Shown here piece after piece: positions 8,332 through 63,947 of a stretch of DNA of 64,000 nt. A model generated the notes under the pieces. The model made no database searches, had not been told where the DNA came from, and was given only the letters and a program-made list of their open reading frames with translations. Position 1 is the first letter of the stretch, and each line of letters begins with the position of its first letter. The translations under genes and the position numbers were made by a program. Origin of the DNA: Streptomyces humicola (lineage in GTDB: Bacteria; Actinomycetota; Actinomycetes; Streptomycetales; Streptomycetaceae); assembly GCF_024436035.1 (NCBI RefSeq), contig NZ_JANFNG010000001.1:15689-79688 (forward strand), in the 5' to 3' direction.

Positions 8332-10176
8332 TCAAGCGAGGGTAATCGTAGGCGAGTACAGGTCCATCCACAGCGCGAGATCGAGCGTGCGCTCCAGACC
8401 GTGCCGGGACGCCTGGTGGATCTGCGGAGTGTCGACCTTCACCGCCTGCTCCAGCCATGCGCGGTCGACCAGGTCGAAGACCGGGTGCGAGGGCTTGGCC
8501 AACAGGTCCTTGGCATTGTCTTGCAGCGCCAGGGCGTACTTGGGATCCTGCGTCGAGGGGTACGGGCTCTTGACCCGGTCGTAGACGGACTTGGGCAATA
8601 CGTCCGCGGTGGCCTCGCGCAGCAGGCTCTTCTCCCTGCCGTCGAAGGACTTCAGTGCCCATGGGGTGTTGTAGACGTACTCCACCAGGCGGTGGTCGCA
8701 GAATGGGACCCGGACCTCCAGGCCGACCGCCATGCTGGCGCGGTCCTTGCGGTCGAGCAGGATCCGCACGAAGCGGGTCAGATGCAGGTAGCAGATGACG
8801 CGCATCCGGTACTCGAAGTCGCTCTCGCCGTCGAGGCGTTGGACACCGGAGACCGCCTTGGCGTAGCTGTCGCGGATGTAGCCGCCCAGGTCCAGGGAGT
8901 TGGTGACGGCAGCGGAGAGGATGTTGCCGTCGTCCCCGAAGTGCTGGGCGTACCGCACCAGCCAGGGGAATGTGTCCGCCTTGCGGGCGTCCTCGTCGAA
9001 GAACTGCTTGTAGCCGCCGAAGACCTCGTCCGCAGACTCGCCGGACAGGGCAACCGTTGAGTGCTGACGGATGGCTTTGAAGAGCAGGTAGAGGGAGGCG
9101 TCCATGTCGCCTAGGCCCGCGGGGATGTCACGGGCGCGGATGACCTTGGACCGCACCTCTGGGTCGGCGAGCTGGTCCGAGTCGAGGACGATGTCCTGGT
9201 GCTCGGTGCCGGAGTTGGCGGCGACGGCATGCACGAACGGGGTGTCGGGGGTGCCCCGCAGGTCGTCGGCGACGAAGTTCTCGGTCTGGCCGACGAAGTC
9301 CACCGCGAAACTGCGGACCGTCTTGCCCTCGGCGGCGAGCTGCTGCGCGGCGATCGCGGTCATGGCCGACGAGTCAAGGCCGCCGGAGAGCAGGGTGCAG
9401 CGCGGCACGTCGGCGACGAGCTGGCGGCGCACGATGTCGTCGAGGAGCGTGCGGACGTGCGCGATCGAGGTCTCCTTGTCGTCGGCGTGCTGCTGGGTCT
9501 CGAGCTTCCAGTAGACGTGGGTGCGTATGCCGCTCCGGCCTACAGTCACCACGGTCCCGGGCTCGACCTCGCGCATGCCCTCCCACACGGCGTGACCGGG
9601 CGTCTTGACGAACGCGAACAGCTCGCGCAGACCGTCCAGGGTGACGGTGCGTGCGGCGAGCGGGTTGGCGAGGATCGCCTTGGGCTCGGAGCCGAACAGC
9701 ACCCCATCGTCGGTCGGGTAGTAGTAGAACGGCTTGATGCCCATCCGGTCGCGGATCATGACGAGCTTCTGCTCGCGGCTGTCCCAGATGGCGAACGCAT
9801 ACATCCCGTTGAGGCGGTCGGCGACCGCCTCGCCCCACTCCAGGTAGCCGTGGAGGACCACTTCGGTGTCGGAAGTGGTGGAGAAACGGTGCCCGCGCGC
9901 AGCCAGTTCCTTGCGCAGCTCGGTGAAGTTGTAGGCCTCCCCGGAGTACACCATGGCCACGCTGCCGCCACCGGGGGCTTCGACGGTCATCGGCTGGCGG
10001 CCGCCGGGCAGATCGATGATGGCAAGCCGTCGGTGGCCGAGCGCGGCCGGTCCGTCGACCCAGGTGCCGCGGTCGTCGGGGCCACGGCAGGCCATCGTTT
10101 CGGTCATGGCGTCCACGGCGGCTTGTTCGTTCCGCAGGTCACGCTGGAACGAGACCCATCCGGCGATTCCGCACAT
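8332..10176 (-). CDS. asnB: asparagine synthase (glutamine-hydrolysing)
   Basis: Starts MCGIAGWV (N-terminal nucleophile Cys2). GATase class-II and synthetase domains (SGGLDSS). The start lies inside the longer ORF-track frame. Confidence 0.9.
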   Translation of the reverse strand: MCGIAGWVSFQRDLRNEQAAVDAMTETMACRGPDDRGTWVDGPAALGHRRLAIIDLPGGRQPMTVEAPGGGSVAMVYSGEAYNFTELRKELAARGHRFSTTSDTEVVLHGYLEWGEAVADRLNGMYAFAIWDSREQKLVMIRDRMGIKPFYYYPTDDGVLFGSEPKAILANPLAARTVTLDGLRELFAFVKTPGHAVWEGMREVEPGTVVTVGRSGIRTHVYWKLETQQHADDKETSIAHVRTLLDDIVRRQLVADVPRCTLLSGGLDSSAMTAIAAQQLAAEGKTVRSFAVDFVGQTENFVADDLRGTPDTPFVHAVAANSGTEHQDIVLDSDQLADPEVRSKVIRARDIPAGLGDMDASLYLLFKAIRQHSTVALSGESADEVFGGYKQFFDEDARKADTFPWLVRYAQHFGDDGNILSAAVTNSLDLGGYIRDSYAKAVSGVQRLDGESDFEYRMRVICYLHLTRFVRILLDRKDRASMAVGLEVRVPFCDHRLVEYVYNTPWALKSFDGREKSLLREATADVLPKSVYDRVKSPYPSTQDPKYALALQDNAKDLLAKPSHPVFDLVDRAWLEQAVKVDTPQIHQASRHGLERTLDLALWMDLYSPTITLA

Positions 10177-11139: not shown

Positions 11140-14025
11140 TCAGGCCGGAGGCAGCGGCTGCTCGGCCCAGATGACCTTGCCTTGAGCGGTGTAGCGGGCA
11201 CCCCAGCGTTGGGCGAGCTGGGCGACGAGGAACAGGCCACGGCCGCCTTCGTCGGTTGCGGCGGCTTGGCGTAGGTGAGGGGAGGTGCAACTGGTGTCGG
11301 AGACCTCGCAGACAAGCGTCCGGTCGCGCAGCAGGCGCACCTGGATGGGGCCGGTTGCGTGGCGGATGGCGTTGGTGAGCAGCTCGCTGAGGATCAGTTC
11401 GGTGGTGAAACAGATCTCCTGCAGTTCCCAGATGGCGAGCTGCTGGGTGACCGCAGCACGAATGTCGGGCACGATGGCCGGGTCGGCGGGGAGGTCGTCC
11501 CAGCAGGCGATGTCGAACGGATCCAGACCGTGCGGTCGTACGACAAGCAAGGTGACGTCATCATCGCTTGGTTGGGACGACGGCAGCCCTTCGATAACGG
11601 CCAGGCAGGTCTCCTCCGGCGAGCGGTGAGGCCGGCCAAGAGTCCGGCGGAGATCCTCCAGAGCGATCTCTATGGATCGCTCGCGGTCCTCCACGAGCCC
11701 GTCGGTGTAAAGGACCAGTTGGCTGGCGTCCGGCAGTTCGATTTCGGCCGACTCGAACGGGAATCCACCCAGGCCGAGCGGCGGCCCGGCGGGAAGCTCG
11801 GGAAATGTCACCGTCCCGTCGGGCTCGACGAGCGCCGGCGGAAGGTGTCCCGCACGAGCCAGTCTGCAACGCCGGGACGTCGGATCGTAGATCGCGTAGA
11901 GGCAGGTGGCTCCCACGAACACGTCTGCCTCGCTCTCCTCCCTGGCCATCTGGTCGACCAGGTCGTCGAGGTGCGCGAGCAGTTCGTCCGGGGACAGTTC
12001 GAACGTCGAAAAGTTGCGCACGGCAGTGCGCAGACGCCCCATGGCCGCTGCGGCATGGACGCCGTGGCCGACCACGTCGCCGACGACCATGGCAACGCGG
12101 GTTCCCGACAGGGGTATGACATCGAACCAGTCACCACCGACTCCGGCGTGTGCGGGCAGGTAACGGTGAGCGACTTCCAAGGCATTCTGTTCGGGTAGGC
12201 CCCGGGGGAGCAGGCTGCGCTGAAGGGTGAGGGCCAAGGTGTGCTCGCGGGTATAGCGGCGCGCGTTGTCGATGCAGACGGCGGCGAAGGCGACCAGCTC
12301 CGACGCGACGCAGAGATCGTCGTCTTCGAAAGGTACCGAGCTTTGCGAACGGTAGAAACTGGCCACCCCCAGGGCCACTCCGCGCGCGCTCAGAGGGACG
12401 GCGATGAGGGAATGGAATCCCTGGTCGAGGATCGCTCCGGCGCGTATCAGGTCCTGGGCTGCCCAACCGCCCGCTGCCTTCAGGTCCGGCTCGATCGCCG
12501 GCGAACCGCACGCCAGGCACCTGGCCTGCGGTGTGCTGGGGGCGAAGCTGACCTGCTCACCCGCGGCATAGAAGAGGGAACTGTCCCGCCCGCCCACGGC
12601 AGCACGGTGCAACATCGCGATCGTGGCTGAGGGCTCGTCCCCGCAGAGCACGGAAGGGTACAGATCGACGGTGACGACATCGGCGAAGTTTTCGATCACC
12701 ACCTCAGTCAGTTCTTCGGAGGTACGGGCCACATCCAGGGTGGTGCCGATATGGCGGACGGACTCGCGAAGCAGCTCCAGGCGGCTGCGAGCCGCGAGGA
12801 CGAGCCTGCCGACGCCGGGCTCGCCAACGGCCAGCAGCGATCTGGAGTGGCGCCCAACGACCCCGTCGGCCACTGAGGCGACGGTGGGAGCGGAGGACGC
12901 AGACCCAGGGGCCCTGGCCGTCTCGTGCCCGTCGATCCTCGACAAGGGCGTCGATATGGAATCGGGCAAGTCACCCGTCGTGAATACTGTGGCGCAGGCA
13001 GGGATGACCACCTCGACCGAGACACCCTCGGATGCGTCCGCCACCGGCCGGGCCAGGAGGGTGGCCGCGCGACCGCCGGACAGCGGCACTTCGATGGCGG
13101 CCCTTCGACCAGAGGCGATCAGCTCTGCCGCCTTCTCCTCCACGATGAGCCGGTCGGAGCCGTTCGGTATGCCGTCGGTCGGGGCACCGAGGTCGATCCG
13201 CCTTCTCCCCTCGAAGGCGGATAGCCGCGCGCGGCGTTCGGCCTCCAGGTATGCCTGCAGCAGGGCACGCTCGCGATCCGTCGTCTGTGACAGCAACCTC
13301 CGTTCGATCGCGAGGCCTGCTTTCCGGGCCATGGCTTCCAACGTCGGGGCGAATTCGGTTCTCCGGGACGCAAAGTCCAGGACACCGACGATGCGTCCGC
13401 TCAGCGGGTCGTGCACCGGAACGGCCACGCAGCTTTCCACCGTCCATGCATCTGCGAAGTGCTCATGACCGTGGACGCGAGAAATGCTCCGCTCCACGAG
13501 TGCGAGGCCGATGGAATTGGTACCGGCGAGCGACTCGTGGAAGCTGAAGCCGGGTGCGCTACCGCCGACCTCCTCCAGATATTTGGTTACCCGCGGTTCG
13601 CCGGCCAGGCATCCGAGTACCACGCCATCGCCGTCGGTGAGGGTCACCGTCACCCACGCACCCGCAATCGCCGTTGCCAATGTGTCGAGCACAGGCTGCG
13701 CCGCGCGAACAAAATCGGTGTCCAGGTCGGGTTCTCCCTGGTAGGTGGACTCGACGCCTGCTGGCGTAAGACCCAGGGATTGGCAGCGGCGCCACGAAGA
13801 CAAGATTGCGCTGCGCACCCGGGCGACTACCGGCTCACCCGCAAGGAACCGCTCACGGCCGCGCGCGACGAACTCGTCGCCCCGATTGTCGTGCGCCACA
13901 TGGATCACTTCCCACTCGTGGAAGTTTCGGCGGTCGTACAGTCCAGCACTTAACAGGCGAGGACGCAGGTGAACGGCATTCCGGGCGAATATATCCCGTT
14001 CAATCGAACGGGGAAAGTCCTCCAC
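11140..14025 (-). CDS. multi-domain signalling protein: GAF domains + PP2C/SpoIIE phosphatase + C-terminal HATPase (anti-sigma-factor kinase-like)
   Basis: AcoR-like GAF N-terminus. PP2C motifs (GGDWFDVIPL, VGDVVGHGVHAAAAMGRLR). C-terminal ELLTNAIRHA...GRGLFLV HATPase_c. Confidence 0.75.
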   Translation of the reverse strand: MEDFPRSIERDIFARNAVHLRPRLLSAGLYDRRNFHEWEVIHVAHDNRGDEFVARGRERFLAGEPVVARVRSAILSSWRRCQSLGLTPAGVESTYQGEPDLDTDFVRAAQPVLDTLATAIAGAWVTVTLTDGDGVVLGCLAGEPRVTKYLEEVGGSAPGFSFHESLAGTNSIGLALVERSISRVHGHEHFADAWTVESCVAVPVHDPLSGRIVGVLDFASRRTEFAPTLEAMARKAGLAIERRLLSQTTDRERALLQAYLEAERRARLSAFEGRRRIDLGAPTDGIPNGSDRLIVEEKAAELIASGRRAAIEVPLSGGRAATLLARPVADASEGVSVEVVIPACATVFTTGDLPDSISTPLSRIDGHETARAPGSASSAPTVASVADGVVGRHSRSLLAVGEPGVGRLVLAARSRLELLRESVRHIGTTLDVARTSEELTEVVIENFADVVTVDLYPSVLCGDEPSATIAMLHRAAVGGRDSSLFYAAGEQVSFAPSTPQARCLACGSPAIEPDLKAAGGWAAQDLIRAGAILDQGFHSLIAVPLSARGVALGVASFYRSQSSVPFEDDDLCVASELVAFAAVCIDNARRYTREHTLALTLQRSLLPRGLPEQNALEVAHRYLPAHAGVGGDWFDVIPLSGTRVAMVVGDVVGHGVHAAAAMGRLRTAVRNFSTFELSPDELLAHLDDLVDQMAREESEADVFVGATCLYAIYDPTSRRCRLARAGHLPPALVEPDGTVTFPELPAGPPLGLGGFPFESAEIELPDASQLVLYTDGLVEDRERSIEIALEDLRRTLGRPHRSPEETCLAVIEGLPSSQPSDDDVTLLVVRPHGLDPFDIACWDDLPADPAIVPDIRAAVTQQLAIWELQEICFTTELILSELLTNAIRHATGPIQVRLLRDRTLVCEVSDTSCTSPHLRQAAATDEGGRGLFLVAQLAQRWGARYTAQGKVIWAEQPLPPA

Positions 14026-51699: not shown

Positions 51700-52080
51700 C
51701 TATCGCCTGCGCATGATCTGCGGCTCGAAGCTGCCCTCGCGATCGCGTGGCACGTCGACCTCGACCGGGCCGACCTCAGTGATGACGGTCTTCGACCGTG
51801 TTCCATCGCGTGAGTTCCCCGATCCAGCCCCGGGCTTGTCGCGCTTCTCGTAGCCAAGATGGCCGGTGCTCTCGCCCTCGAGGGCAGACTCCAGAACCCT
51901 TTTCGTCAGCTGTTGCAGCGGCCCACACCCGCCGGTCAGCTTGATGTCTTGGGCACGAGCACAGTCGACCAACTGTCCGGTCAACTCAACTGCTCGTCCA
52001 ACGCGTCCGGCTTCTGCTCGATCCGCTGGACTTCCTCAACCGCCTCGGCAGATGCGATCACATCGCTCATCAGGTGTTCT
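51700..52080 (-). mobile_element. IS256-family (mutator-type) transposase N-terminal remnant with internal stop, C-terminally truncated
   Basis: LQQLTKRVLESALEGESTGHLGYEKRDKPGAGSGNSRDGTRSKTVITEVGPVEVDVPRDREGSFEPQI is the classic IS256 block. An upstream piece (MSDVIASAEAVEEVQRIEQKPDALDEQLS) is separated from it by TGA. Confidence 0.7.
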
Positions 52081-52367: not shown

Positions 52368-53843
52368 ATGGCACTTCAGCGAGACGACTGGCTCGACGTA
52401 GCACGCAAGGTGGACTGGGAGTTCCGCTACGTCGATGAGCGCGAGGTGTATCCGGAGGTTGTCAGCGGTTCTCCGTGGTTGTCCCACGAGTCGTGGAAGA
52501 ACTGGGAGGAGGCGTACCGGAACACCTACCGCGAGTATGTTCAAAACCAGCTCGTCAAGGACGACTCCGTATTCGCGGTCCGGGACGCGCTCGGCAAGGC
52601 TAAGATCACGGAGCGGTTGGACCCTGCGTGGGTGCAGCTGGCAAAGTTCCATAACGGAGCGATTGCCCTCGGGGAATACGCTGCATGTCTGGGCGAGCTG
52701 CGAATGGCGCGCTTCGGCAGGGATGGCGCGTGGCGGACGATGGCGAACCTGGGTGCGCTCGACGAGATCCGGCACACGCAGATTCCGCTGATGATCGGTC
52801 AGGACCTGCTGAAGTTCGACTCCAGGTTCGACTGGACGCATAAGGCGTACCACACCAACGAGTGGGCGATGATCGCTGCCCGTCACCTGTTCGACGACAT
52901 GTTCACCGCTGCGAATGCGTTGGACACCGCGATTCAGCTCACGTTCGTCTTCGAGACCGGGTTTACGAACCTGCAGTTCATCGCTATGGCGGCGATGGCA
53001 GACGGTGCGGACGACCATGTGTTCGAGAAGATGCTGGCGAGCATCCAGACCGATGAGTCACGGCATGCTCAGCAGGGTCATCCTGTGCTGCGGACGCTGA
53101 TCGAGAATGGCGGCAAGGAATACGGACAGTACCTGCTGGACAAGATGTGGTGGCGGTCGTGGCGGATTTTCCTCGCGCTCACCGGCACATCGATGGACTA
53201 CCTGACTCCGGTTCATGCCCGTCGGCAGTCCTTCAAGGAGTTCATGGAGGAGTGGATCAACGACCAGTTCCTCAAGAACCTTGAGGAGTTCGGTCTGGAG
53301 AAGCCATGGTTCTGGGACCAGTTCGTGGAGGAGTTGGATCACGCCCATCACAGCTTCCAGCTCGGTTTGTACACCTACCGGCAGACTCTGTGGTTCGACG
53401 AGCCGGTGCCCAGCCCGGAAGAGCGGGCTTGGCTGGAGGAGAAGTACCCGGGCTGGACTGAGACGTACGGCTCCATCTGGGACAACATCGAGAAGATGTG
53501 GGATGAGCGCGGCGAACTGGGAACGCTGCCGTACTCGTTGCCGTCGCTGTGTAACCTGTGCCAGCTCCCGACGGCGTTCCGGGGGCCTGGCAAGAACACG
53601 GCATGCACTCTCGAGCACAACGGTCGGAAGTACCTTTTCTGCTCCGAGCCGTGCCGGTGGATCTTCCAGCAGCAGCCGGAACGTTTCGCGGAGCATCAGT
53701 CGGTCATCGACCGGATTTTCAAGGGCGACTGCCCCACGGACATCTACGCGGTACTGGACTGGATGGGCGTGGAGCAGCACGGAAAGGACCTCCACAACGG
53801 GGAACACCCGTGGCGGCAGAAGCGCGCGGCGGTGTCGGCGTGA
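52368..53843 (+). CDS. soluble diiron monooxygenase hydroxylase alpha subunit (TmoA/IsoA-like, group 2)
   Basis: Two diiron ligand motifs (E..DEIRH and E..DESRH). About 490 aa. AAGGAG RBS. Confidence 0.85.
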   Translation: MALQRDDWLDVARKVDWEFRYVDEREVYPEVVSGSPWLSHESWKNWEEAYRNTYREYVQNQLVKDDSVFAVRDALGKAKITERLDPAWVQLAKFHNGAIALGEYAACLGELRMARFGRDGAWRTMANLGALDEIRHTQIPLMIGQDLLKFDSRFDWTHKAYHTNEWAMIAARHLFDDMFTAANALDTAIQLTFVFETGFTNLQFIAMAAMADGADDHVFEKMLASIQTDESRHAQQGHPVLRTLIENGGKEYGQYLLDKMWWRSWRIFLALTGTSMDYLTPVHARRQSFKEFMEEWINDQFLKNLEEFGLEKPWFWDQFVEELDHAHHSFQLGLYTYRQTLWFDEPVPSPEERAWLEEKYPGWTETYGSIWDNIEKMWDERGELGTLPYSLPSLCNLCQLPTAFRGPGKNTACTLEHNGRKYLFCSEPCRWIFQQQPERFAEHQSVIDRIFKGDCPTDIYAVLDWMGVEQHGKDLHNGEHPWRQKRAAVSA

Positions 53844-53895
53844 GCATGTACTGGGATTTCCTGCTACCTGCTGAGCAAGAGCTGAAGGAGACGAC

Positions 53896-54144
53896 GTGAT
53901 TATCCCGCTGTACGGCTTCTTCGAAGGGGACTTTCTGGGTCTTGTGTTGATCGCGATGCCGGATCAGCCGGTCTCCACGCTGGCTGAGCAGCTTTCTGGT
54001 TGGGTGCTCGACCTGCGGGTGGATCGCACGGGTGGTGCGCTTGAGGTCCTGAACGAGGCCGGAGAGATTCTCGATCAGAGCAAGTCGATCGAAGAGGCGG
54101 GCCTAGGTTACGGCGACATGTTCCATGTGAGGCAGGCGGCGTGA
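53896..54144 (+). CDS. monooxygenase gamma subunit (TmoB / Toluene_X-like)
   Basis: 82 aa. Position and size match tmoB or isoB. GTG start with AAGGAG RBS. Confidence 0.5.
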   Translation: MIIPLYGFFEGDFLGLVLIAMPDQPVSTLAEQLSGWVLDLRVDRTGGALEVLNEAGEILDQSKSIEEAGLGYGDMFHVRQAA

Positions 54145-54494
54145 GCACTCAAGTCAGCAGCACGTGGGTTCAGGTGACGACGCTGGATGAACTCTGGGAG
54201 GGCGAGATGCTCCCGGTCAGTGTCGATGAGACCGACGTGCTGGTCGTGAACGCCGGGGGGACAGTTGTCGCTTTCGAGGACAGCTGCCCCCACGTGGGCA
54301 CCGCATTGTCCACGGGCACGTTCGACGGCAAAGAGATCATGTGCCCTTCGCATGAGTGGACCTTCACGGCGACCACGGGGAAGGGCATTAATCCGGCGGC
54401 TGCGTGTCTTCGTCGTTATGCGGTTCGGATCGAGGGCGAGGCCGTGTATATCAACCTGCACGACGTCCTGCAAGAGGAGAAGGGAATGGCATGA
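54141..54494 (+). CDS. Rieske-type [2Fe-2S] ferredoxin (TmoC-like)
   Basis: CPHVG...CPSHEW Rieske CxH/CxxH ligands. GTGA overlap with the upstream gene. Confidence 0.8.
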   Translation: MSTQVSSTWVQVTTLDELWEGEMLPVSVDETDVLVVNAGGTVVAFEDSCPHVGTALSTGTFDGKEIMCPSHEWTFTATTGKGINPAAACLRRYAVRIEGEAVYINLHDVLQEEKGMA

Positions 54495-54832
54495 CGGAAA
54501 ACGCTGACGAGCGCCGGACACTCAGTCAGGTTATCGAGCGCGGCGTCGGACCGGTGCTGCAGTCGACACCGCTGGGCAAGGCGATCATCGCGGCCATCGA
54601 GGAAGAGAACGAAGAGGTCTTCGTCGAGGACGCCGGCGCCTACTTCCGGGTGTTCGTGCCGGACGAGTGTCGGGTGACCCGTGAGGCGATCGAAGGCAAC
54701 TACGGCCGCAAGATCCGGTTTCCTGGCGATCTAGAGGTGATCATGTCCTCATTTGCCGGAGTCCTGTCTATGAGTCAGGACCGGGCTGTCTGGTCGCTTC
54801 CGCCACGGCACCTTTCCTCTTCAGGAGCGTGA
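54491..54832 (+). CDS. monooxygenase effector/coupling protein (MmoB/DmpM family, TmoD-like)
   Basis: 113 aa. GPVLQSTPLGKAIIAAIEEENEEVFVEDAGAYFRV resembles effector proteins. ATGA overlap with the ferredoxin gene. Confidence 0.6.
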   Translation: MTENADERRTLSQVIERGVGPVLQSTPLGKAIIAAIEEENEEVFVEDAGAYFRVFVPDECRVTREAIEGNYGRKIRFPGDLEVIMSSFAGVLSMSQDRAVWSLPPRHLSSSGA

Positions 54833-55845
54833 TGACAATGACCGAACGGAGCGAGAAGAAGCTCAAGACATACTCGATGCTCCAGACTGGTCGGAGGTTG
54901 CCGTCCAACTACGAGCTCGTGAGTTCGCGGCTGCACTACCACTACCCGCACAACTTCGAGCTCAGCAACGAGAACCCGGTCAGCAAGTGGTACTACCAGT
55001 ACCGCGAGTCGTCGCCGTTGCAGGCCCATGACTGGGAGGCTTTCGCTGATCCCCGTAGCACGACCTACCGGGGTTACAACGAGCTGCAGAACGACAAAGA
55101 GACCGTTGTCGACGGGCTCCTGCGAGAGATCGACGAGAGCAACTACGACGACGAATTGGCAGCCGAGTGGGTTACCTTCCTGCATCGCTGGTATGGTGCG
55201 TGGCGCTTTCCGGTGCACGGGCTGGAGATGATCAGTGCCTACGTCGGGCAGATGGCTCCGGTGTCTCGTATCACGAACGCTGGTGCGTTCCAGTCTGCTG
55301 ACGAGATGCGCCGGATCCAGCGAATCGCTTACCGTTCAGCGCAGCTGAATGCGCGTAGGGGAGGCTGTGAACCTGGCGAGCAGAAGGCGTTCTGGGAGGA
55401 TGGCGAGCCGTTCCAGGCGGTGCGGGAGCTCATCGAACGGGCGCTGATCGCGTATGACTGGGGCGAGGCGTTCACCGTGCTGAACCTGGTCATCAAGCCA
55501 CATCTCGATAGGTTGCTGAACGAGGAACTGGCAGGGGTGCTGGCTGCGACAAACGGCGACACCATGTTGCGTGAGATTCACTTCTCCCTCAACGAGGACG
55601 CGCTGTGGCATCGGGAATGGTCCCGCGAACTCGCGCGTGTCGCCATCGCTGACACTCCAGTGAATGCTGACCGGTTTGCTGCCTGGGTCGACGAGTGGCG
55701 ACCGAGGGCTGTCGCGGCAGTCGAGAGCTATGTGTCGGTCTTCGAGCAGGCGCCGGTTCGGGTGGATGCGAATGGGGTGTTCGCGCGGATCACGGCGGCT
55801 GCCGAGGAGGACGTGAAGGCGGCTCTCGCGACGCCGGTCGGCTGA
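54829..55845 (+). CDS. soluble diiron monooxygenase hydroxylase beta subunit (TmoE-like)
   Basis: ~338 aa all-helical protein directly after the effector, in the canonical group-2 operon position. Start overlaps the effector stop. Confidence 0.65.
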   Translation: MMTMTERSEKKLKTYSMLQTGRRLPSNYELVSSRLHYHYPHNFELSNENPVSKWYYQYRESSPLQAHDWEAFADPRSTTYRGYNELQNDKETVVDGLLREIDESNYDDELAAEWVTFLHRWYGAWRFPVHGLEMISAYVGQMAPVSRITNAGAFQSADEMRRIQRIAYRSAQLNARRGGCEPGEQKAFWEDGEPFQAVRELIERALIAYDWGEAFTVLNLVIKPHLDRLLNEELAGVLAATNGDTMLREIHFSLNEDALWHREWSRELARVAIADTPVNADRFAAWVDEWRPRAVAAVESYVSVFEQAPVRVDANGVFARITAAAEEDVKAALATPVG

Positions 55846-55924: not shown

Positions 55925-56335
55925 ATGGCTGGAGAGCTGAAGTTCTTCTCGCCCGAATGGTGTGCTGCCGCGATTGAAGTGTGCAACGCGAGTGAGCGTA
56001 TGTACCAGGGTTTCAAGGACCCGAAGAACTTCACACACAGGATGGAGTTCGGGTGTACGGACCGGGACCTGCCTACGCATGTGGAGTGGAGGGAAGGCCA
56101 GGTCGTGGCCTGGGGTCCTGCGCAGTACGAAGAGTCGGACCTGTGGCTGAAGATTCACGCGGACATCGACACATGGCGTGATGTGGCCGAGGGCAAGATC
56201 GAGGGTGGGAAGGCCCTGATGGCCGGCCGGATCAAGTTCGTCAAGGGACCGATGTCGGCGGCGATCGAGAATGGCGGGGCGTTCAACGGCTTCCTCGCGG
56301 CCTGGGGTGATGTCCCGACCGACTGGGACGTCTGA
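55925..56335 (+). CDS. SCP2 sterol/lipid-binding domain protein
   Basis: SCP2 C-terminal pattern KALMAGRIKFVKGPMSAAIENGGAFNGFLAAWG. AGGAGA RBS. Confidence 0.7.
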   Translation: MAGELKFFSPEWCAAAIEVCNASERMYQGFKDPKNFTHRMEFGCTDRDLPTHVEWREGQVVAWGPAQYEESDLWLKIHADIDTWRDVAEGKIEGGKALMAGRIKFVKGPMSAAIENGGAFNGFLAAWGDVPTDWDV

Positions 56336-56858
56336 GCAGGAGTTCTGCACGAATAGGTGTGGGAATTGATGGAAGGCGGGTCGGTGTGCTGGTAGCTGGG
56401 GTGTTCATGTCGGCCGTGCTCGCAACTGGAGTCGGTGTGGCGGCTTGGCTTGACACTCGTCCACGTGCACAGACCCCGGGTGTTGATTCTGCAGCCGGAT
56501 GCACCCCGGTCCGCCTTCCGTTCCCCAAGGGTCGACGGGCTGCACGTTGGTGACGATACTGCTGTGATCCTTCGTCCCAGTGCACGCCTTGCCGGGAACC
56601 TGGCAGCGGCAGGCCGATGCATTCCTGGAGGATCTGCAGATTTCACCCCGGGTGACGAACTGGCATCGGAAATATTCCGAGGGCGGTACGTGTCCTGCTG
56701 GCGGTGCTGCTCGGACTGGTTGCGTTTGAGTATGGCTGGTGTAGTCGTAGCGGCGGATGCGAGGCGGTCTTCTCCTACTCCAACTCGGTGTCCACCCCTT
56801 GAATGGGGCGAGGACGCCAGGTCGGATATCCCTAATGGCGCAGGATTCTTTTGAGGTG

Positions 56859-57317
56859 TCAACGATGAAAGCAGCAACGAAGAAGGACTATGGAGTCTCC
56901 CTCTACGACGGGGACCTTTCGAACGGTCTCGCCAATATTTTGGCAACGCTGCTGGCACAAAACTTCGAGAATTTCCCGGAGCGGGTGAAGATAGCTCGGC
57001 GCATGCCGCGGCCAGTGGCTGTTTACAGCACGGATACCGACAGCACTGCAACGATCGTGTTCGGTGCAGAGGAGGCCGTCATTTACAACGATCTGGTCGG
57101 CCGTCCCAGTGTGCTGGTGAAGGCCACCGTCGACCAGATTCTCGATGTCTCTCAGCTCAAAATGGTCGGTTCCGGTCTTGTCCCGGTCGGTTTCTTCACC
57201 AGGCGTGGTGTTCGTGTACTTGGTGAGATTGCCAAGCACCGGCTCGTCGTCAAGGGTCTGCTCACCCACACGGTGATGTCGCTGCAGCTTATCGCCCTGT
57301 TGTCCATCGCTGAATGA
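56859..57317 (+). CDS. second SCP2-like domain protein (low similarity)
   Basis: Pattern VLVKATVDQILDVSQLKM...GFFTRRGVRVLGEIAKHRLVVKGL resembles the SCP2 C-terminus. GAGGTG RBS. Confidence 0.35.
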   Translation, partial: STMKAATKKDYGVSLYDGDLSNGLANILATLLAQNFENFPERVKIARRMPRPVAVYSTDTDSTATIVFGAEEAVIYNDLVGRPSVLVKATVDQILDVSQLKMVGSGLVPVGFFTRRGVRVLGEIAKHRLVVKGLLTHTVMSLQLIALLSIAE

Positions 57318-57507: not shown

Positions 57508-58116
57508 GTGAGTAGTCATGCGAAAGCCCAGTCCCTGTACAGCCGAACAGATGTGACGTTGCCGTTGCGGGTGAAGAGGGCGGGCCCGGTAACGCGGGTT
57601 CTTCAGGTAGTGGTCATCCTCGCCCTGATCCCGGTGGGCGCGTTCTATCTGTATCCCCGGATATATAATCTTGTGGCCACGCCGTATCGATTGGACAAGG
57701 CGGTGGTCTATGCAAACCGCTACAACCCTGGACTCTTCAAGATCGTGAACGAGGAACAGGTGACTTTGCAGGCATTCGGCGCTCTCGATCAGATGAACGC
57801 AGCCATCGCGAGGGTCCAGGGTGTCGATTCCCAGGTCGCGGACCAGCTGAGGACCTTGGTGGGGCAGATCAGGGGTGATCTGCAGGCGACCTTGAATTCG
57901 GCGGACGGGGACGTGAGCGGTCTTGTCAGCAGCCTCAACGCGTTGGACGCACGGTTGGAGGGACTCAATCCTCCCGTGGACGGAGCAACCAGCGCTGTGG
58001 CACGAGATCGGGCAACGCTTGCCGGGATCCTCGACGAGGCACGGGCTACCGCCGCGAAGGTGCATACCGCCCGGGAAGAAGCGGACGGCTCCGCTCAGAA
58101 TGTTTCTGGGCATTAA
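57508..58116 (+). CDS. membrane-anchored alpha-helical protein, paralog 1 of 5 (unknown function, DUF948-like?)
   Basis: N-terminal TM (VLQVVVILALIPVGAFYLY) followed by an A/Q/L/T/V-rich helical repeat region. The GTG start was chosen inside ORF 57352..58116. Confidence 0.45.
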   Translation: MSSHAKAQSLYSRTDVTLPLRVKRAGPVTRVLQVVVILALIPVGAFYLYPRIYNLVATPYRLDKAVVYANRYNPGLFKIVNEEQVTLQAFGALDQMNAAIARVQGVDSQVADQLRTLVGQIRGDLQATLNSADGDVSGLVSSLNALDARLEGLNPPVDGATSAVARDRATLAGILDEARATAAKVHTAREEADGSAQNVSGH

Positions 58117-58127
58117 CTCGTAGGGAG

Positions 58128-58664
58128 ATGACCGTGTTTTTCGGACGTGCACACGGCCCGGCCCGCATGATTTTGGCCATTGCCGCTGTTGGTGTACTTG
58201 GTCTACTCAGTTTCGTCGTGTTCAACCTGAACCACCGTCTGGACAACCAGCAACGCGCGAACTTGCAGACCTTGGCGGCATCGAAAGCGATCGTCGAAGT
58301 CAACGACAAGGTGACCGAACGCCTGGCCCAACTCACCGCACTCACAGGTACGGCGCGTCAGGCGGTGAGGCAAACCCAAGGGCTGGAACCGCTGTTGGAG
58401 CAGCTGAAGACGGCTGTCCAGCCCGCCGCGGCAGCGGTTTCCACCGGTAGCTCCGGCGCGCAGACCAGCAACCGTCAGCTCACAACGATCCAGAACGTAC
58501 TCAACGAGGTACGCGACAAGGTCGTTCCCTTGGTCGATTCGGCGGGCAAGTTCGGCGACCAGGGAAAACAGCTCGTGTCGATCGTACAGGGACTCGTGTC
58601 CGACCTGCAGGGCGCTGTGGCCGACGCGAAGACGATTAACCAGTCACTGCCACTGCCCAGCTGA
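58128..58664 (+). CDS. membrane-anchored alpha-helical protein, paralog 2 of 5
   Basis: GGGAG RBS. TM (MILAIAAVGVLGLLSFVVF) then Q/A/T/L-rich helices. Confidence 0.55.
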   Translation: MTVFFGRAHGPARMILAIAAVGVLGLLSFVVFNLNHRLDNQQRANLQTLAASKAIVEVNDKVTERLAQLTALTGTARQAVRQTQGLEPLLEQLKTAVQPAAAAVSTGSSGAQTSNRQLTTIQNVLNEVRDKVVPLVDSAGKFGDQGKQLVSIVQGLVSDLQGAVADAKTINQSLPLPS

Positions 58665-58711
58665 CGGATCGATTTCCACCGCCGCGGGAACTGACACACA
58701 AGAGGTGAACC

Positions 58712-59284
58712 GTGAACAGGCGCACGGATATCCCAGACTCGGTGCTACGAAGCTCAAGCACCGTGGCTATCACCACCGAGTGGATGGGGAAGATTGCCGC
58801 CATCATCGCCATAGCACTTTTCTTCCTGGTGATGACGGCTATCCACAAGGGCCTGCTCGTGCAAAGCAGCGCACGATCGATTGTTCAGAACTTCCACACC
58901 ACCAACAATTTTTTCGCCACCCGGGCGGACTTCAATGACCCGGCACTGGCAAAGCAGGAACTGCAAACGCTGGCCGGAGTGCTGACTCAACTCAATGGCA
59001 CCACGGTGCAGGATGTGAATGACCTCGCAGCGACTCTGCCGAACGTCGCCCGTCTGCTGGATGCGGGCAAGGGCGATGTGGACATCGCCAAACAGATGCA
59101 GGGTGTGGCCGGCACGCTGCAGGGTTCGGCCAGCAGCTTGCACCGGATCGCCGGGGGTGCCGAGGGCAGCGTCTCCACCGTCAACAATTCGCTGGCCGCG
59201 GCTATCAACCTGGTCGGTCAACTCAACGCGCAGCTTGCCATTACTGAACAGAAACTGTCAGTACTGCCCGCGACAGGGAGGTAG
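58712..59284 (+). CDS. membrane-anchored alpha-helical protein, paralog 3 of 5
   Basis: TM (IAAIIAIALFFLVMTAI) then repeats such as LQTLAGVLTQLNGTTVQDVNDLAATLPNVARLL. Confidence 0.55.
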   Translation: MNRRTDIPDSVLRSSSTVAITTEWMGKIAAIIAIALFFLVMTAIHKGLLVQSSARSIVQNFHTTNNFFATRADFNDPALAKQELQTLAGVLTQLNGTTVQDVNDLAATLPNVARLLDAGKGDVDIAKQMQGVAGTLQGSASSLHRIAGGAEGSVSTVNNSLAAAINLVGQLNAQLAITEQKLSVLPATGR

Positions 59285-59289
59285 AACCC

Positions 59290-59943
59290 GTGCTTACCAA
59301 GAAGGTCTGGTTCGCGACAGTGGCCACCCTGGGAGGCGGGGCGTGCATTGTCATCGGAATGCTCAACCGATTTGTTCCCCACCTGCAGGACCTCTCCGAC
59401 CCGCTCGGTAGGCCCTCCGCACTGAGTCTTCAGGTCATCCACTCGGCCAGCCAGTTCGACAGCATCACCTCGGTGCTGGTACCCAAGCACCACGACTTGG
59501 GCCAGCGCATCCAGGTACTGCACACCGTCGCCGACGACCTGGACGGGCTGGTGAACAAGGCCGGCGGCCTGGTGCCTTCGGCGCAGGCGGTCAACGGCGA
59601 TACCACCACCGTTCAGGGTGTTGCCACGCCGCTGCCGCCGCTGATCAACAAGGTGACCGGGCGGGCTCAACAGGCCACTCCGCAGGTGAATGCGCTCGGT
59701 AACGCGGTCTCTTCGGTGACGACACAACTGAACGCGGTTGACGTCAACATGACGGCCATTGCCACGGACCTCGGCGCGCTCGGTCCGCGTGCGCAGGAGA
59801 TCGTCGCGATACTTCAGGAGATCGAAGCGGAGTCAGAACGCATCCGGCCTGTCGCTCCGCTGCTGCCGGTGCTCAGCACGGTGACCAACATCACCTCCAG
59901 CAACGGCCAACCGATCCTTGGACTGCTCGGCCCGCTGACGTGA
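59290..59943 (+). CDS. membrane-anchored alpha-helical protein, paralog 4 of 5
   Basis: GGGAGG RBS. TM (VWFATVATLGGGACIVIGML). Similar TVQ/QLN-type repeats. Confidence 0.55.
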   Translation: MLTKKVWFATVATLGGGACIVIGMLNRFVPHLQDLSDPLGRPSALSLQVIHSASQFDSITSVLVPKHHDLGQRIQVLHTVADDLDGLVNKAGGLVPSAQAVNGDTTTVQGVATPLPPLINKVTGRAQQATPQVNALGNAVSSVTTQLNAVDVNMTAIATDLGALGPRAQEIVAILQEIEAESERIRPVAPLLPVLSTVTNITSSNGQPILGLLGPLT

Positions 59944-59979
59944 CCCGGACAACAACAGCCGTACAAGGGAGGCAGCTTT

Positions 59980-60507
59980 ATGTTCCGGCTCTCCTGGGCC
60001 ATTACCCTTATCTTCTCGCTCGGCATGCTGACGGGAATCCTGGTTGTCACACGGGACCTTGCCGAGACCAACGCCATCTTCAAAGACGGCGTCGTTCAAG
60101 CGGAGAAGGTCAACTCCACCACCGATACAGCGTTGGGTGCGACCGGCCAGCTGCCGCCCGCAGACAAGGCGATCGGCCAGGGACTGCCGCAGGTGGTCGA
60201 TGTTCTCGGTTCGCTGAGCAAGGCGCAAACCACGCTCGGCACGCTGGGCAACCAGCTCGGTAATCTCGGCACCGTGCTCACCCGAGCGGATCCGCCGCTG
60301 GTGGGAATTATTGGTGCCGCACAGCAGTCAACCAATCAGGCCAATGCGGCCGCCGCTCCTGCCGCGTCGATCGTGCGGCTGCTCGCCCAGGCGGATCAGC
60401 GAGTACAGGCCCTGGCCCCGCTTTTGGACCAGACCGCGGCACGTGCCCGGAACATCAACTCCAAGCTCCACGTGTTGATGCTGCTGCCGGGCTCCGGAGG
60501 CGGCTGA
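59980..60507 (+). CDS. membrane-anchored alpha-helical protein, paralog 5 of 5
   Basis: GGGAGG RBS. TM (LSWAITLIFSLGMLTGILVV). Similar helical repeats. Confidence 0.55.
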   Translation: MFRLSWAITLIFSLGMLTGILVVTRDLAETNAIFKDGVVQAEKVNSTTDTALGATGQLPPADKAIGQGLPQVVDVLGSLSKAQTTLGTLGNQLGNLGTVLTRADPPLVGIIGAAQQSTNQANAAAAPAASIVRLLAQADQRVQALAPLLDQTAARARNINSKLHVLMLLPGSGGG

Positions 60508-60515
60508 CTACGAAC

Positions 60516-60548
60516 CGTCCTCCACTCTCGCTTGGAGAGTGGAGGACG
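60516..60548 (+). terminator. perfect 14-bp stem / 5-nt loop hairpin (CGTCCTCCACTCTC gcttg GAGAGTGGAGGACG) after paralog 5
   Basis: Read directly from the sequence, 9 nt after the stop codon. Confidence 0.6.
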
Positions 60549-60860: not shown

Positions 60861-61140
60861 ATGTCGCCGCTGCGCTGGACGGTGAAGTCGATCCGACAGC
60901 TGGCTGTCGAGCTTTCCGGTCATGGCCACCGCGTCGGCCGCGACACCGATCGTGACCTACTGCGCGCTGAGGGCTTCAGCAGGCCAACGCCAAGGCTCTG
61001 GAGGGCAGGTAGCACCTGGCCCGCGACGCGCAGTTCCGCTACCTCATCGAGCAGGCCCGCGAGCGCCGCGATACCGGGAAGTCGGTCATCGGTACGGACA
61101 CAGCCGCCGAAGCGGAGGAGATCATCCGGCGCTGAGGGAG
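60861..61140 (+). mobile_element. ISAzo13-family transposase remnant (in-frame TAG plus frameshift, truncated)
   Basis: MSPLRWTVKSIRQLAVELSGHGHRVGRDTDRDLLRAEGFS is followed by LQANAKALEG-stop-HLARDAQFRYLIEQARERRDTGKSVIGTDT. This matches the ISAzo13 N-terminus. Confidence 0.55.
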
Positions 61141-62022
61141 CAGGTAGTCCATCGAACAGGCGATCACGGACGCGAAGGACCTTCCTCGGCACCGGCGGCG
61201 CGCGCAGCCGCACCGACCAGGCGCTGGAAGTCGCTGTTCCCTTTCAACTCGACTGTCGAACCGTGCTGGTGCTCTGGTACATCCGCGCCGGCAACGCTCA
61301 ACGCGACGTCCGCGCCCGCCGCGCAGCGGCCCGTGGTACCGCCCCAAGCAGCACGTCTCCCTTCAAGGCAACGATCACCGCATTCCAGCGGGCCCGGATT
61401 ACCGCAGCCGCCAGGCCAACCCGGCTTCGTGCTATTCCACAACGCCCCACTGACCCGTGCCGCTCCCGCCGCGTAACGGCGAAACTTTAGTTCCTCATTT
61501 GTCCTCACACCGCCGTTCCGCAGGAAGGAACGTCTCCTGCGGACAGGCCGAAGCCACAGTAAATACAACCGGAGATTTCTCTGTGGGTTGGGGTCGGTCG
61601 GGCCAGCGGTGCATGTGAGGAGGTAGCGCGTGTTCTCGTCGACGCTCTTGTGGATGTGCGTCCGGACCGCATCTGGAGATCGAGTCGAGGTACGGGCGGG
61701 CGTGAGATTTCGTCTTGGAGGGGGAGGGGCCTAAATCACGTACGTCGACGGTCAGGGGCCGTGCCGGGGCGCACCCTGCCCAGTGGATCGGCCGCAAATG
61801 TCAAGGCCAACCAGGCATCGAGGTGTCTTTTGTGTGCCTATCGGCCGTACTGCTTTGCGGGGGGGAAGCTGCCACGGGTAAGGCAGCGCAATCCGACAGG
61901 CGTGCATCAGGTCCAAAGTGGCGTACCGGCAGGGCCCACCCTCCGACCACCCTCGACCGGTGTGCTCCGTGTGGGGCTGTTGCACTACTGACGTACGTGG
62001 CGGGGAGACCGAGGTGCCCGAT

Positions 62023-62796
62023 ATGAGGGATGTGCCTGTGAACCGCTCCACTGTCGACGGAGGGCTGAAATCAGTATGGGCCGCGCTGGAACTGCTGGAC
62101 TGTTTCGAGGCCGCCCATGAGCTTGGAGTCTCCGACATCGCCCGACAGTTGGGTGTCGCGAAGAGCACTGCTCACCGGCTGCTCACCACGTTGTGTGCCC
62201 GCGGGCTGGTTGAGAAGAACCCGCAAAGCGGGCAATACCACCTGGGTTTGCACTTGTTGGAGTTGGGCCTGCTGGTGGCGGGCCGCTTCCGGCTCCGTCA
62301 GGCCGCGCTGCCGTTGCTGGAAGAGCTGCGGCAGCGTACCGGCTGCACGGTCCACCTGTCGGTCCCAGAGGGTGCGGACGTTTTGTTTGTGGAGCGTCTC
62401 CAGTCGCTGAACGGAATGCATCTGCTGGCCAACGTCGGACGGCGGCTGCCGGCACACTGCACCAGCTCAGGTAAGGTGATGGCGGCCTTCGACGCCACCC
62501 TTGCCCGGCAGCGACGTGAGGCCGGATTCCCCGTCCTCACGTCTTCCACAATTCGCACTCCGGCCGTCTGGGATCGGGTTCTTGTCGAGACGCGACGGCG
62601 CGGGTTCGCAGTCAGCCGCGACGAGATGACGGTCGGGCTGACGTCATTGGCTGCACCGCTCCGCGACAACGCGGGGCGGGCCCGTGCAGCGATCTCCGTC
62701 GTCGGACCGACTCGGGAGGTCGGAGACAGCATTGAACGCTCGGCGCGACTGGTGACCGAGGCTGCGCGCAAGCTCAGCCGCCGCCTGTGCCTGTGA
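62023..62796 (+). CDS. IclR family transcriptional regulator
   Basis: N-terminal HTH (ELGVSDIARQLGVAKSTAHRLLTTL). C-terminal IclR effector domain. Confidence 0.8.
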   Translation: MRDVPVNRSTVDGGLKSVWAALELLDCFEAAHELGVSDIARQLGVAKSTAHRLLTTLCARGLVEKNPQSGQYHLGLHLLELGLLVAGRFRLRQAALPLLEELRQRTGCTVHLSVPEGADVLFVERLQSLNGMHLLANVGRRLPAHCTSSGKVMAAFDATLARQRREAGFPVLTSSTIRTPAVWDRVLVETRRRGFAVSRDEMTVGLTSLAAPLRDNAGRARAAISVVGPTREVGDSIERSARLVTEAARKLSRRLCL

Positions 62797-63158: not shown

Positions 63159-63947
63159 GTGAACGCAGTCGCTCAGGCAGAGGCAGCCGATCTGCTTTTG
63201 TCTGCCTACGAGTCCCGGGTTCCGGTGGATCCGTTGGTGGAGAAGTACGGAGGGCTCACGCTGGACGATGCGTACGAGATCCAGCTGCTCCAGATCCGCC
63301 ACCGGATGATGGCCGGAGCCACGGTGAAGGGGCACAAGGTGGGCCTGTCGTCACCCGCCATGCAGCGGCAGATGGGCGTCAGCCAGCCGGACTACGGCCA
63401 TCTGCTCGATGACATGTTCTGGCTCGAACACCTACCGATCCCGGCCGACCGGTTCCTTCAGCCACGGGTCGAGCCGGAGGTCGCTTTCGTGCTCAAGCGT
63501 CCGTTGCAGGGACCCGGTGTGACGGTTGCCGAGGCAGCTGCGGCAGTCGACTTCGTCCTGCCCGCACTCGAGCTCATCGACAGCCGGATCCGGGACTGGA
63601 AGATCAGCATTTTCGACACCATCGCGGACAACGCGTCATCGGGCGGCGTGGTGCTCGGCAGCACCCTCACGCGTCTGTCTGCAGTGGATCTGCGTCTCGT
63701 TGGCTGCAACCTGCACAAGGACGGTGAGCTCGTTGCCACGGGCGCGGGCGGCGCGGTCCTGGGGTCGCCGCTGACGTCGCTGGTGTGGCTGGCCAACACG
63801 GTCGGCGCGCATGGCGTCGCACTGGAGGCAGGACACGTCGTGCTGCCCGGTTCTGTCACCGCGTCGATCCCGGTTCGCGGAGGCGACAGCGTGACCGCCG
63901 CCTTCGCCGGGCTCGGCAGCGTGACCGCGCGTTTCACGGAGGAGTGA
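63159..63947 (+). CDS. 2-keto-4-pentenoate hydratase (MhpD/XylJ/BphH family)
   Basis: GTG start. Hydratase/FAH-family blocks (LDDAYEIQ, EPEVAFVL, AAVDFVLPALELIDSRI). Confidence 0.8.
   Translation: MNAVAQAEAADLLLSAYESRVPVDPLVEKYGGLTLDDAYEIQLLQIRHRMMAGATVKGHKVGLSSPAMQRQMGVSQPDYGHLLDDMFWLEHLPIPADRFLQPRVEPEVAFVLKRPLQGPGVTVAEAAAAVDFVLPALELIDSRIRDWKISIFDTIADNASSGGVVLGSTLTRLSAVDLRLVGCNLHKDGELVATGAGGAVLGSPLTSLVWLANTVGAHGVALEAGHVVLPGSVTASIPVRGGDSVTAAFAGLGSVTARFTEE

Follow-up and report, generated by a model that had tools for sequence, protein, structure and literature searches.

Two styrene degraders, Gordonia rubripertincta CWB2 and Rhodococcus opacus 1CP, carry in their styrene clusters a gene cassette which has already been noticed and never characterised. 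In 1CP it was described as seven hypothetical proteins, five of them with a transmembrane (TM) segment, and TMHMM returned 'in-membrane-out' for these five and 'soluble' for the other two (PMC13101518). All seven 1CP orthologues were induced about 1000-fold or more on styrene (PMC13101518), the log2 fold changes for styrene versus p-cresol being 12.8 and 11.6 for the two soluble proteins, here called SCP2a and G0, and 10.9, 10.3, 10.3, 11.0 and 10.8 for the five membrane proteins, here called G1 to G5 (PMC13101518, Data Set S2), which places the cassette among the most strongly induced gene sets on styrene in that strain (PMC13101518). Styrene induction in CWB2 is stated in PMC13101518 on the authority of Heine et al. 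2018. Here we describe the same cassette in a 64,000-nucleotide stretch of Streptomyces humicola DNA (positions 15,689 to 79,688 of contig NZ_JANFNG010000001.1, assembly GCF_024436035.1), hereafter the window, where it lies beside a soluble diiron monooxygenase (SDIMO). This adds a genus and an oxygenase partner to the described occurrences, and comparison with further loci extends the cassette to at least four oxygenase classes. Moreover, G0 is identified from its structure model as a predicted SCP2 fold, G1-G5 emerge from their sequences as canonical coiled coils, and assignments to the Mce and DUF948 families are removed.

Other described systems resemble the cassette in part. UbiJ, an SCP2 protein, and the small coiled-coil protein UbiK are accessory factors of the soluble ubiquinone-hydroxylase metabolon; together with UbiK, UbiJ keeps hold of a hydrophobic substrate from the membrane on which soluble monooxygenases act. 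The combination of an SCP2 protein, a coiled coil and a soluble oxygenase is common to UbiJ-UbiK and the cassette, and the SCP2 domain of UbiJ is the best structural match of G0; however, UbiJ belongs to another phylum and pathway and is 13-16% identical to G0 in structural alignment, with no sequence homology, and UbiK, unlike the membrane-anchored and probably extracytoplasmic G1-G5, is soluble. The Mce1 and Mce4 systems share with G1-G5 an N-terminal anchor, a long extracytoplasmic helical region, tandem different chains which are presumably co-assembled, and an association with hydrophobic-substrate catabolism, but G1-G5 have no MCE beta-barrel, comprise five chains and not six, and have no conserved YrbE or MceG nearby; the likeness lies in how they may work, and G1-G5 are not members of the family. 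FadL, TodX and StyE are, like the cassette proteins, accessory non-enzymatic envelope proteins of styrene and toluene clusters and are co-induced with them (StyE is discussed in PMC13101518). They are, however, monomeric outer-membrane beta-barrels with no structural or sequence relation to G1-G5. To our knowledge, Streptomyces and Nocardioides, which carry the cassette, have no mycolic-acid outer membrane, the acquisition and tolerance of volatile, membrane-toxic hydrocarbons by Gram-positive degraders are poorly understood, and we know of no counterpart of TodX or StyE among them.

Conservation of the seven-gene cassette

All cassette genes of the window lie on the forward strand. SCP2a (55925..56335; a soluble SCP2-family protein of 136 aa) and G0 (56865..57317; soluble, 150 aa) are followed by the single-pass membrane coiled-coil proteins G1 (57508..58116; 202 aa as called), G2 (58128..58664; 178 aa), G3 (58712..59284; 190 aa), G4 (59290..59943; 217 aa) and G5 (59980..60507; 175 aa), the final gene. 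G0, G4 and G5 are 100% identical to NGB36_00345, NGB36_00365 and NGB36_00370 of Streptomyces sp. RB6PN25, while an exact-sequence look-up of G2 returned no record. This order agrees gene for gene with that on plasmids pGCWB2 of CWB2 (L018) and pR1CP1 of 1CP (L019), namely two soluble and then five single-TM proteins, and window and styrene-cluster proteins share 44-71% identity. Against pR1CP1 the tblastn identities from SCP2a to G5 were 55, 65, 55, 62, 54, 48 and 59%, and each window protein matched only its positional counterpart at E < 1e-30. The window locus differs from the styrene-cluster cassettes in that its neighbour is a reductase-less SDIMO of toluene/benzene type and not StyAB, the host is a Streptomyces, the cassette sits on a lower-GC island bounded by insertion sequence (IS) fragments, a 529-nt gap divides SCP2a from G0, and the SCP2 pair does not have its nearest relatives where the G1-G5 block has them.

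By tblastn, the order SCP2a-G0-G1-G2-G3-G4-G5 was found in 13 of the 16 loci first gathered, and again in plasmid and other loci added later, with identities of 44-94% across loci; G1 orthologues are 44-57% identical and constant in position. A scan by G1 alignment of one genome per species gave 15 loci, 12 in Rhodococcus and the others in Gordonia, Nocardia and a metagenome-assembled genome (MAG) of Mycobacteriales, and on a metagenome contig that had drawn notice by its G4 homologue, the whole series G1-G5 was present in unchanged order with a G0 orthologue upstream. Altogether, 27 non-redundant loci with the G array were assembled, which often lie on catabolic megaplasmids and most of which keep the order; they come from Rhodococcus, Gordonia, Nocardia, Nocardioides, Pseudonocardiales, Acidimicrobiia and Streptomyces. 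When G2 was searched against plasmids by tblastn, orthologues were found on 18 of them, 17 from Rhodococcus and one from Gordonia. The Rhodococcus and Gordonia cassette plasmids span 105 kb to 1.4 Mb and include pRHL1 and pRHL2 of R. jostii RHA1, pDK2 of DK17 and pROB02 of R. opacus B4, besides pR1CP1 and pGCWB2. Word-indexed searches gave 49 clusters for G5, most of about 174 aa, and 202 clusters in 5.8 billion sequences for G0. G1-G5 are orphan families restricted to Actinomycetota. An earlier note on this DNA, made from the sequence without database searches, had singled out the five membrane genes as a co-functioning module; that they belong to a conserved module, co-inherited beside oxygenase genes, is borne out, and the 1CP orthologues are co-induced with the catabolic genes, but very probably the real unit is seven genes, SCP2a to G5, of which G1-G5 are the membrane sub-module.

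Some strains or plasmids have two or three copies of the cassette, such as R. oxybenzonivorans pRB98 (L027), R. opacus pHG203 (L003/L010) and RHA1 with pRHL1 and pRHL2. On pRB98 one copy lies upstream of an SDIMO operon and the second starts directly after that operon. A 13-kb contig of an Acidimicrobiia MAG (L031, 2426-7165) shows another arrangement, with five TM coiled-coil genes, then a small gene matching SCP2a and then two tandem G0 paralogues, and no oxygenase on the contig. Literature searches in the papers available found no account of SCP2 proteins with SDIMO or toluene monooxygenase and nothing useful on pRHL2 transcripts.

We took a census of the neighbourhood by running a panel of oxygenase markers over the flanks of the 27 non-redundant loci, window included, and by reading the annotated records. 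An oxygenase or meta-cleavage marker was present in the flanks of 19 loci: an SDIMO or phenol hydroxylase at seven, the styrene monooxygenase StyA at seven, a P450 with PDR-type reductase at three, and a Rieske ring dioxygenase or meta-cleavage genes at two; the flanks of the remaining eight had no panel marker. The SDIMO group includes isoABCDEF of the isoprene degrader Nocardioides sp. WS12 and an SDIMO cluster with gshB in Gordonia sp. OPL2, while StyAB adjoins the cassette in 1CP, CWB2 and five further Rhodococcus loci. The substrates of the linked clusters are volatile or hydrophobic aromatics and alkenes, namely styrene, isoprene, alkylbenzenes, and benzene or phenol. Hence the specific link to SDIMO that the earlier note had drawn does not hold, and the cassette is linked to hydrophobic-substrate oxidation generally. 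Since its partners in several orders of Actinomycetota belong to at least four oxygenase classes unrelated to one another, we regard it as a general plug-in for hydrocarbon catabolism that is not specific to styrene. Regulators of the IclR, AraC and two-component AkbS/T types are common neighbours, and an ABC pair adjoins the cassette in 1CP and is absent at the other annotated loci inspected.

The cassette is modular, composed of [SCP2a-G0] and [G1-G5], and horizontally mobile. In Nocardioides aquiterrae and in an Acidimicrobiales MAG (L023), SCP2a and G0 stand directly after SDIMO operons with no G1-G5. In Streptomyces sp. NPDC005202 (L030), SCP2a and G0 are 94% and 90% identical to the window proteins while G1-G5 are only 44-55% identical, below their identity to Rhodococcus. 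This mosaic implies either that the G1-G5 block was replaced by recombination near the G0/G1 junction or that the coiled-coil genes evolve much faster. Just upstream of SCP2a in the same strain, positions 8156-9525 hold an 86%-identical remnant of a window-type SDIMO, in which the 5' end of the alpha gene is fused to the 3' end of the beta gene. Going by this remnant, NPDC005202 lost its SDIMO by internal deletion and kept the cassette, which now adjoins a cluster for phenol hydroxylase and catechol 2,3-dioxygenase.

Architecture of the encoded proteins

The five consecutive open reading frames (ORFs) of the earlier note, each with one N-terminal TM helix, were borne out by ORF positions and hydropathy: each of G1-G5 has a single segment of strong hydrophobicity, near the N terminus (Kyte-Doolittle 19-mer mean 1.8-2.75), at residues 14-32 in G2, 26-44 in G3 and 6-24 in G5. 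Behind it the proteins are enriched in Ala, Leu, Thr, Gln, Asp and Val and nearly devoid of Cys and Trp. Given that high-GC DNA is rich in false ORFs and that pairwise BLAST of the five is near noise, one may ask whether these are spurious or unrelated low-complexity frames with a chance resemblance. The probability of this is negligible and we consider it refuted by the synteny and the expression data: orthologues stand in the same order at 40-64% identity in several orders of Actinomycetota, the 1CP orthologues are strongly induced as transcripts, invariant motifs are present, and each of G1-G5 has the coding-type pattern of GC by codon position (GC3 > GC1 > GC2).

When averaged over orthologues, the hydrophobic periodicity of the ectodomains was 3.45-3.50 residues in all five (3.50 in G1), with a power of 56-161 against a shuffle 95th percentile of 47-58, the strongest being G2 with 161. 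Each heptad has two hydrophobic positions with 3/4 spacing, as in an a/d core, and in G2, G4 and G5 the a/d register continues nearly without a break for 130-190 residues, while in G1 and G3 it drifts more. Judged by these sequence patterns, the ectodomains are genuine, canonical left-handed heptad coiled coils, beyond what helical low-complexity sequence would give. G1 and G4 have in addition invariant, non-helical juxtamembrane motifs (YLYPRIY-L-ATPYRLD and D..DPLG.P, respectively), which argue for specific contacts and against generic filler. An AlphaFold2 monomer model of G4 shows a TM helix, a linker and two long helices at low confidence (predicted local distance difference test, pLDDT, 56), and a fold search with this model returned no structural match below E = 1.

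The shared architecture of G1-G5 is certain; their kinship is a separate matter. In an all-vs-all BLAST of the five the best pair was G4-G5 with E = 2e-4 in a five-sequence database. We then compared ectodomain profiles, built from per-gene orthologue alignments of 20-odd loci with the TM segment removed, against a column-shuffle null of 40 shuffles. The pairs G4-G5 (z = 10.1) and G3-G4 (8.7) and, with weaker support, G2-G5 (3.9), G2-G3 (3.5) and G3-G5 (3.0) were not equalled by any of the 40 shuffles, a result which may be somewhat inflated because the null destroys the heptad periodicity, while pairs including G1 reached z = 0.9-2.8, were equalled by 1-9 of the 40 and were in no case significant. 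A single copy of the motif N-x(1-4)-[TS][TS]-x(4-14)-[LV]P is present in each of G2-G5 (in G3 at residue 95) and none in G1. By these profiles and this motif, common descent of G2-G5 is plausible and that of G1 with them unproven. The tandem duplication proposed in the earlier note is thereby weakly supported for four of the five proteins, and the recurring motifs it named reduce to this one motif of G2-G5.

The coiled coils are predicted to face outward, with the N terminus inside and the C terminus outside (N-in/C-out), which rests on the TMHMM assignments in PMC13101518. In a crude positive-inside count, G2 and G4 agree with this orientation, G1 and G5 show no preference and G3 points the other way.

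We scanned the seven window proteins against Pfam, NCBIfam, PHROGs and PADLOC, in which the only above-threshold match was that of SCP2a to SCP2 and no phage or defence-system match was found, and tested the families of G1-G5 on 67 orthologues. DUF948 and YtxH-type proteins likewise begin with a TM helix and continue as a helical region rich in Ala and Gln, and the earlier note had seen a faint resemblance to DUF948. In the scans, G2 reached 12.1 bits against DUF948 (PF06103), whose cutoff is 37.2 bits, and five of the 67 orthologues reached E <= 0.01, no more than the coiled-coil noise given by Baculo_PEP_C, Perilipin or Laminin; the resemblance dissolves into such noise. Phasin, MCP and perilipin identities were dismissed as sub-threshold coiled-coil noise, as were the weak matches to NPV_P10, IcmG and MCPsignal.

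The earlier note took both upstream genes for SCP2-type genes, which agrees with Pfam for SCP2a and with the predicted fold for G0. SCP2a matches Pfam SCP2 (PF02036) with E = 1.8e-5 and 25.5 bits against a cutoff of 21.3 bits; its orthologues (54-94% identity) stand directly upstream of G0 in most loci, and the one in R. opacus B4 is annotated as an SCP2 sterol-binding domain protein. G0 gave no match in Pfam or NCBIfam, its PDB sequence-profile search was empty at E <= 10, and hhalign of the SCP2a profile against G0 gave a probability of 0.1%, that is, no sequence relation. Its AlphaFold2 model (pLDDT 80, predicted TM-score 0.77) found as best Foldseek match in the PDB the SCP2 domain of UbiJ (6h6p; E = 3.5e-6, target TM-score 0.72), followed by human MFE-2 SCP2, rabbit SCP2 and alkylsulfatase SCP2 domains. 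On this model, G0 is predicted to have a cryptic SCP2 alpha/beta fold and to be the second SCP2-type protein of the cassette.

Proposed function and rival explanations

As our best explanation, we tentatively propose that the cassette is an envelope-to-enzyme module for the passive capture and hand-off of hydrophobic substrate, although we rate its probability below even. The five chains would assemble into one hetero-oligomeric coiled-coil structure, and such co-assembly is probable in view of the fixed set of genes in fixed order, the short or overlapping intergenic spacing and the chain-specific invariant motifs. This structure would stand out from the cytoplasmic membrane on its outer side, in the N-in/C-out orientation, and would concentrate hydrophobic substrate of the cell-wall zone or guide it into the membrane. 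Once partitioned there, the hydrocarbon would be picked up by the two SCP2-fold proteins in the cytoplasm and delivered to the soluble oxygenase, much as UbiJ-SCP2 serves the soluble Ubi hydroxylases. Since no ATPase or permease is a constant partner, the transfer would be passive and driven by consumption. Substrate uptake or presentation, one of the roles suggested in the earlier note, stays our best guess, and a functional precedent is seen in the MCE family genes reported next to an iso cluster of Mycobacterium (2026 comparison of iso clusters). A more specific form, in which the five chains would make a membrane-anchored 1:1:1:1:1 heteropentameric stalk or alpha-helical barrel, 10-20 nm in length and extending into the cell wall, whose hydrophobic core or lumen would serve as an ATP-independent collector and conduit of small volatile hydrocarbons and feed the two SCP2 chaperones and the adjacent oxygenase, is distinctly unlikely as it stands; if true, it would be a previously unrecognised class of Gram-positive hydrocarbon-acquisition device, functionally equal to FadL/TodX channels or Mce tunnels and unrelated to both.

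Several points weigh against the capture and hand-off of substrate. Small hydrocarbons cross membranes unaided. What supports the proposal is co-induction and synteny; we infer the hetero-oligomer from co-inheritance, and the G4 monomer model is poor; the topology is prediction-based, the positive-inside count being clear for G2 and G4 and opposite for G3. As for the synteny itself, the eight loci with no panel oxygenase in their available flanks go part of the way towards an array without monooxygenase linkage, which the earlier note had named as evidence against its view, and in Haloechinothrix the cassette is by itself, with transposases and integrases on its flanks. The evolutionary histories of [SCP2a-G0] and [G1-G5] are separate, and as the two halves also occur apart, one shared pathway is not required. 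Finally, the isoprene-induced iso-cluster genes in the Rhodococcus sp. AD45 paper include no such cassette, and given that gene list the cassette is probably not essential.

The last point also favours the main rival, in which the cassette would serve solvent tolerance and not supply, an extracytoplasmic layer or bundle of the five coiled-coil proteins stabilising the cytoplasmic membrane or wall zone as membrane-active hydrocarbons accumulate and the SCP2 proteins buffering free hydrocarbon or epoxide in the cytoplasm; the cassette is apparently dispensable in a model isoprene degrader. Its linked substrates styrene, benzene, alkylbenzenes and isoprene are membrane-toxic solvents (for styrene, PMC8552685), strains associated with solvents carry it, as do megaplasmids from sites contaminated with oil or solvent, its induction is very strong and it is independent of the oxygenase type. 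Yet SCP2a and G0 are paired tightly with SDIMO operons even where G1-G5 are absent, which resembles substrate delivery; five distinct conserved chains with specific juxtamembrane motifs exceed what a generic stabiliser needs; and no similarity to envelope-stress proteins was found, PspA/Vipp1 fold matches being insignificant (E > 7) and DUF948 sub-threshold. We consider protection against solvent stress somewhat unlikely. If the cassette does improve either of the two, supply or tolerance, engineered epoxidation biocatalysts and bioremediation would benefit from it.

The likeness to Mce raises the further question whether G1-G5 derive from the C-terminal helical 'needle' parts of a degenerate Mce system, forming a tunnel like that of the Mce1 heterohexamer after loss of the MCE domains, permease and ATPase. 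The logic would be the same, with an N-terminal anchor, a long extracytoplasmic helix, tandem different chains and hydrophobic substrates; one JGI record labels a G5 orthologue 'ABC-type transporter Mla subunit'. TIGR00996, an MCE family model, was moreover the most frequent weak match, found in 15 of the 67 orthologues (best E = 1e-4, profile positions about 165-285). But this match, given also by G5 of the window, covers the helical tail alone and scores about 20 bits where the cutoff is 140.5 bits, and it is explicable by a common heptad composition rich in Ala, Leu, Thr and Gln. No MlaD/MCE domain was found in the 67 orthologues. When 1.84 billion representatives were searched exhaustively with the G5 profile by HMMER, 31 hits came back, of which 28 were same-type proteins of about 175 aa, complete or partial and up to about 200 aa, and three were long repetitive proteins; an MCE domain was found in none, and Mce membership was rejected on this search. 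The same profile against PDB sequences retrieved only designed coiled coils and no Mce1 chain at E <= 10. With five chains against six, no gene for any permease or ATPase among those called in the window cluster, and neither YrbE nor MceG conserved as a neighbour elsewhere, descent from an Mce system appears improbable. Still less do we credit a membrane scaffold or sensor, by which the five proteins would tether the oxygenase complex, as the earlier note had suggested, or would sense substrate for the regulators of the catabolic cluster. IclR, AraC and two-component AkbS/T-type regulators are indeed frequent neighbours and one member has a weak MCPsignal match, but the N-in/C-out orientation leaves only 5-35 residues in the cytoplasm, the site of oxygenases and regulators, no HAMP, kinase or other signalling domain is present, and partner oxygenases from at least four unrelated enzyme classes argue against specific docking. 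Organisation of the hydroxylase at the membrane fits poorly with this orientation, as the coiled coils are predicted outside and the hydroxylase is cytoplasmic.

The window island and minor features of the locus

An optional eighth gene stands beside some cassettes or beside the SCP2 pair alone. It encodes an internally duplicated protein of about 350 aa with four annotated TM segments, in which each of the two repeat units consists of a TM segment, a loop of about 110 aa with the motif QGVDNLT..F and another TM segment, with no family assignment. We located it at L017 11287-12333, L018 11117-12349, L020 9287-10333, L012 9819-10865 (reverse strand), L023 8946-10004 and L032 about 12191-13222. 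It is unrelated to G1-G5 and absent from the window, and no remnant of it was found in the 529-nt gap (56336-56864), which has flat codon-position GC and is non-coding. In the Acidimicrobiales MAG the position of this gap is occupied by a 352-aa membrane-protein gene with four predicted TM segments. The gap also parts the monooxygenase and SCP2a from G0-G5 in the window, so that co-transcription of the two groups is no more than possible.

G1-G5 are separated by 11, 47, 5 and 36 nt. A ribosome-binding site of the form GGGAG or GGGAGG, ascribed earlier to every gene, precedes G2, G4 and G5 only, that of G1 being AAGGA and that of G3 GAGGTG. The start of G1 is uncertain, since its frame is open from 57352 and the N-termini of the orthologues vary. 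For G2, the called ATG has zero spacing to GGGAG, while GTG 58134 has a 6-nt spacing and agrees with the orthologue N-termini (MFFGR...); on both grounds GTG 58134 is more likely the true start. After the fifth gene, the perfect 14-bp hairpin of the earlier note was read directly from the sequence at 60516..60548 (+), 8 nt 3' of the G5 stop, with a GC-rich stem and a 5-nt loop (CGTCCTCCACTCTC-GCTTG-GAGAGTGGAGGACG). The 61-nt stretch containing it has a minimum free energy of -35.1 kcal/mol (z = -5.6), and 0 of 200 shuffles folded equally well. No U tract follows the stem, AGTGGATGTTGC coming next, owing to which a consensus terminator scan did not report it. Tail-less hairpin terminators have been reported for actinobacteria, and the hairpin is a probable transcript end or stabiliser, termination being our reading of the fold.

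The SDIMO of the window is of the four-component type (52368..55845, +; Pfam Phenol_Hydrox+YHS, TmoB, Rieske, MmoB_DmpM, Phenol_Hydrox), and the gene order of the island runs from the alpha subunit, TmoB-like protein, Rieske ferredoxin, MmoB-type effector and beta subunit to SCP2a, the 529-nt gap, G0-G5 and the hairpin. No reductase gene lies in the operon, and tblastn with IsoF of Nocardioides sp. WS12 was empty across the window. GC is about 0.60-0.62 across about 52-60 kb, as against 0.66-0.70 for most of the remaining window, and this stretch is flanked by truncated transposase genes of IS256/Mutator type (51700..51984, -; Pfam Transposase_mut, E = 8e-19, N-terminal 96 of 379 positions only) and ISAzo13 type (60861..61000, +; Pfam DDE_Tnp_ISAZ013, E = 3e-7, positions 15-57 only). 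These features are consistent with horizontal acquisition of the SDIMO and cassette as an island. When the island was compared with plasmids by megablast, nothing matched but the ISAzo13 fragment, which hit transposase DNA on Streptomyces plasmids. To the right of this fragment lie an IclR-family regulator and a meta-cleavage-type FAA-family hydratase (61918-62796 and 63159-63947). The SDIMO alpha subunit is 84% identical to that of the Acidimicrobiales MAG, whose operon, likewise without a reductase, is followed by SCP2a and G0 and precedes meta-cleavage genes. Together with the regulator and the hydratase, this operon context suggests that the substrate of the window oxygenase may be aromatic rather than an alkene. 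The regulator and the hydratase further suggest that an aromatic lower pathway continues past the end of the window.

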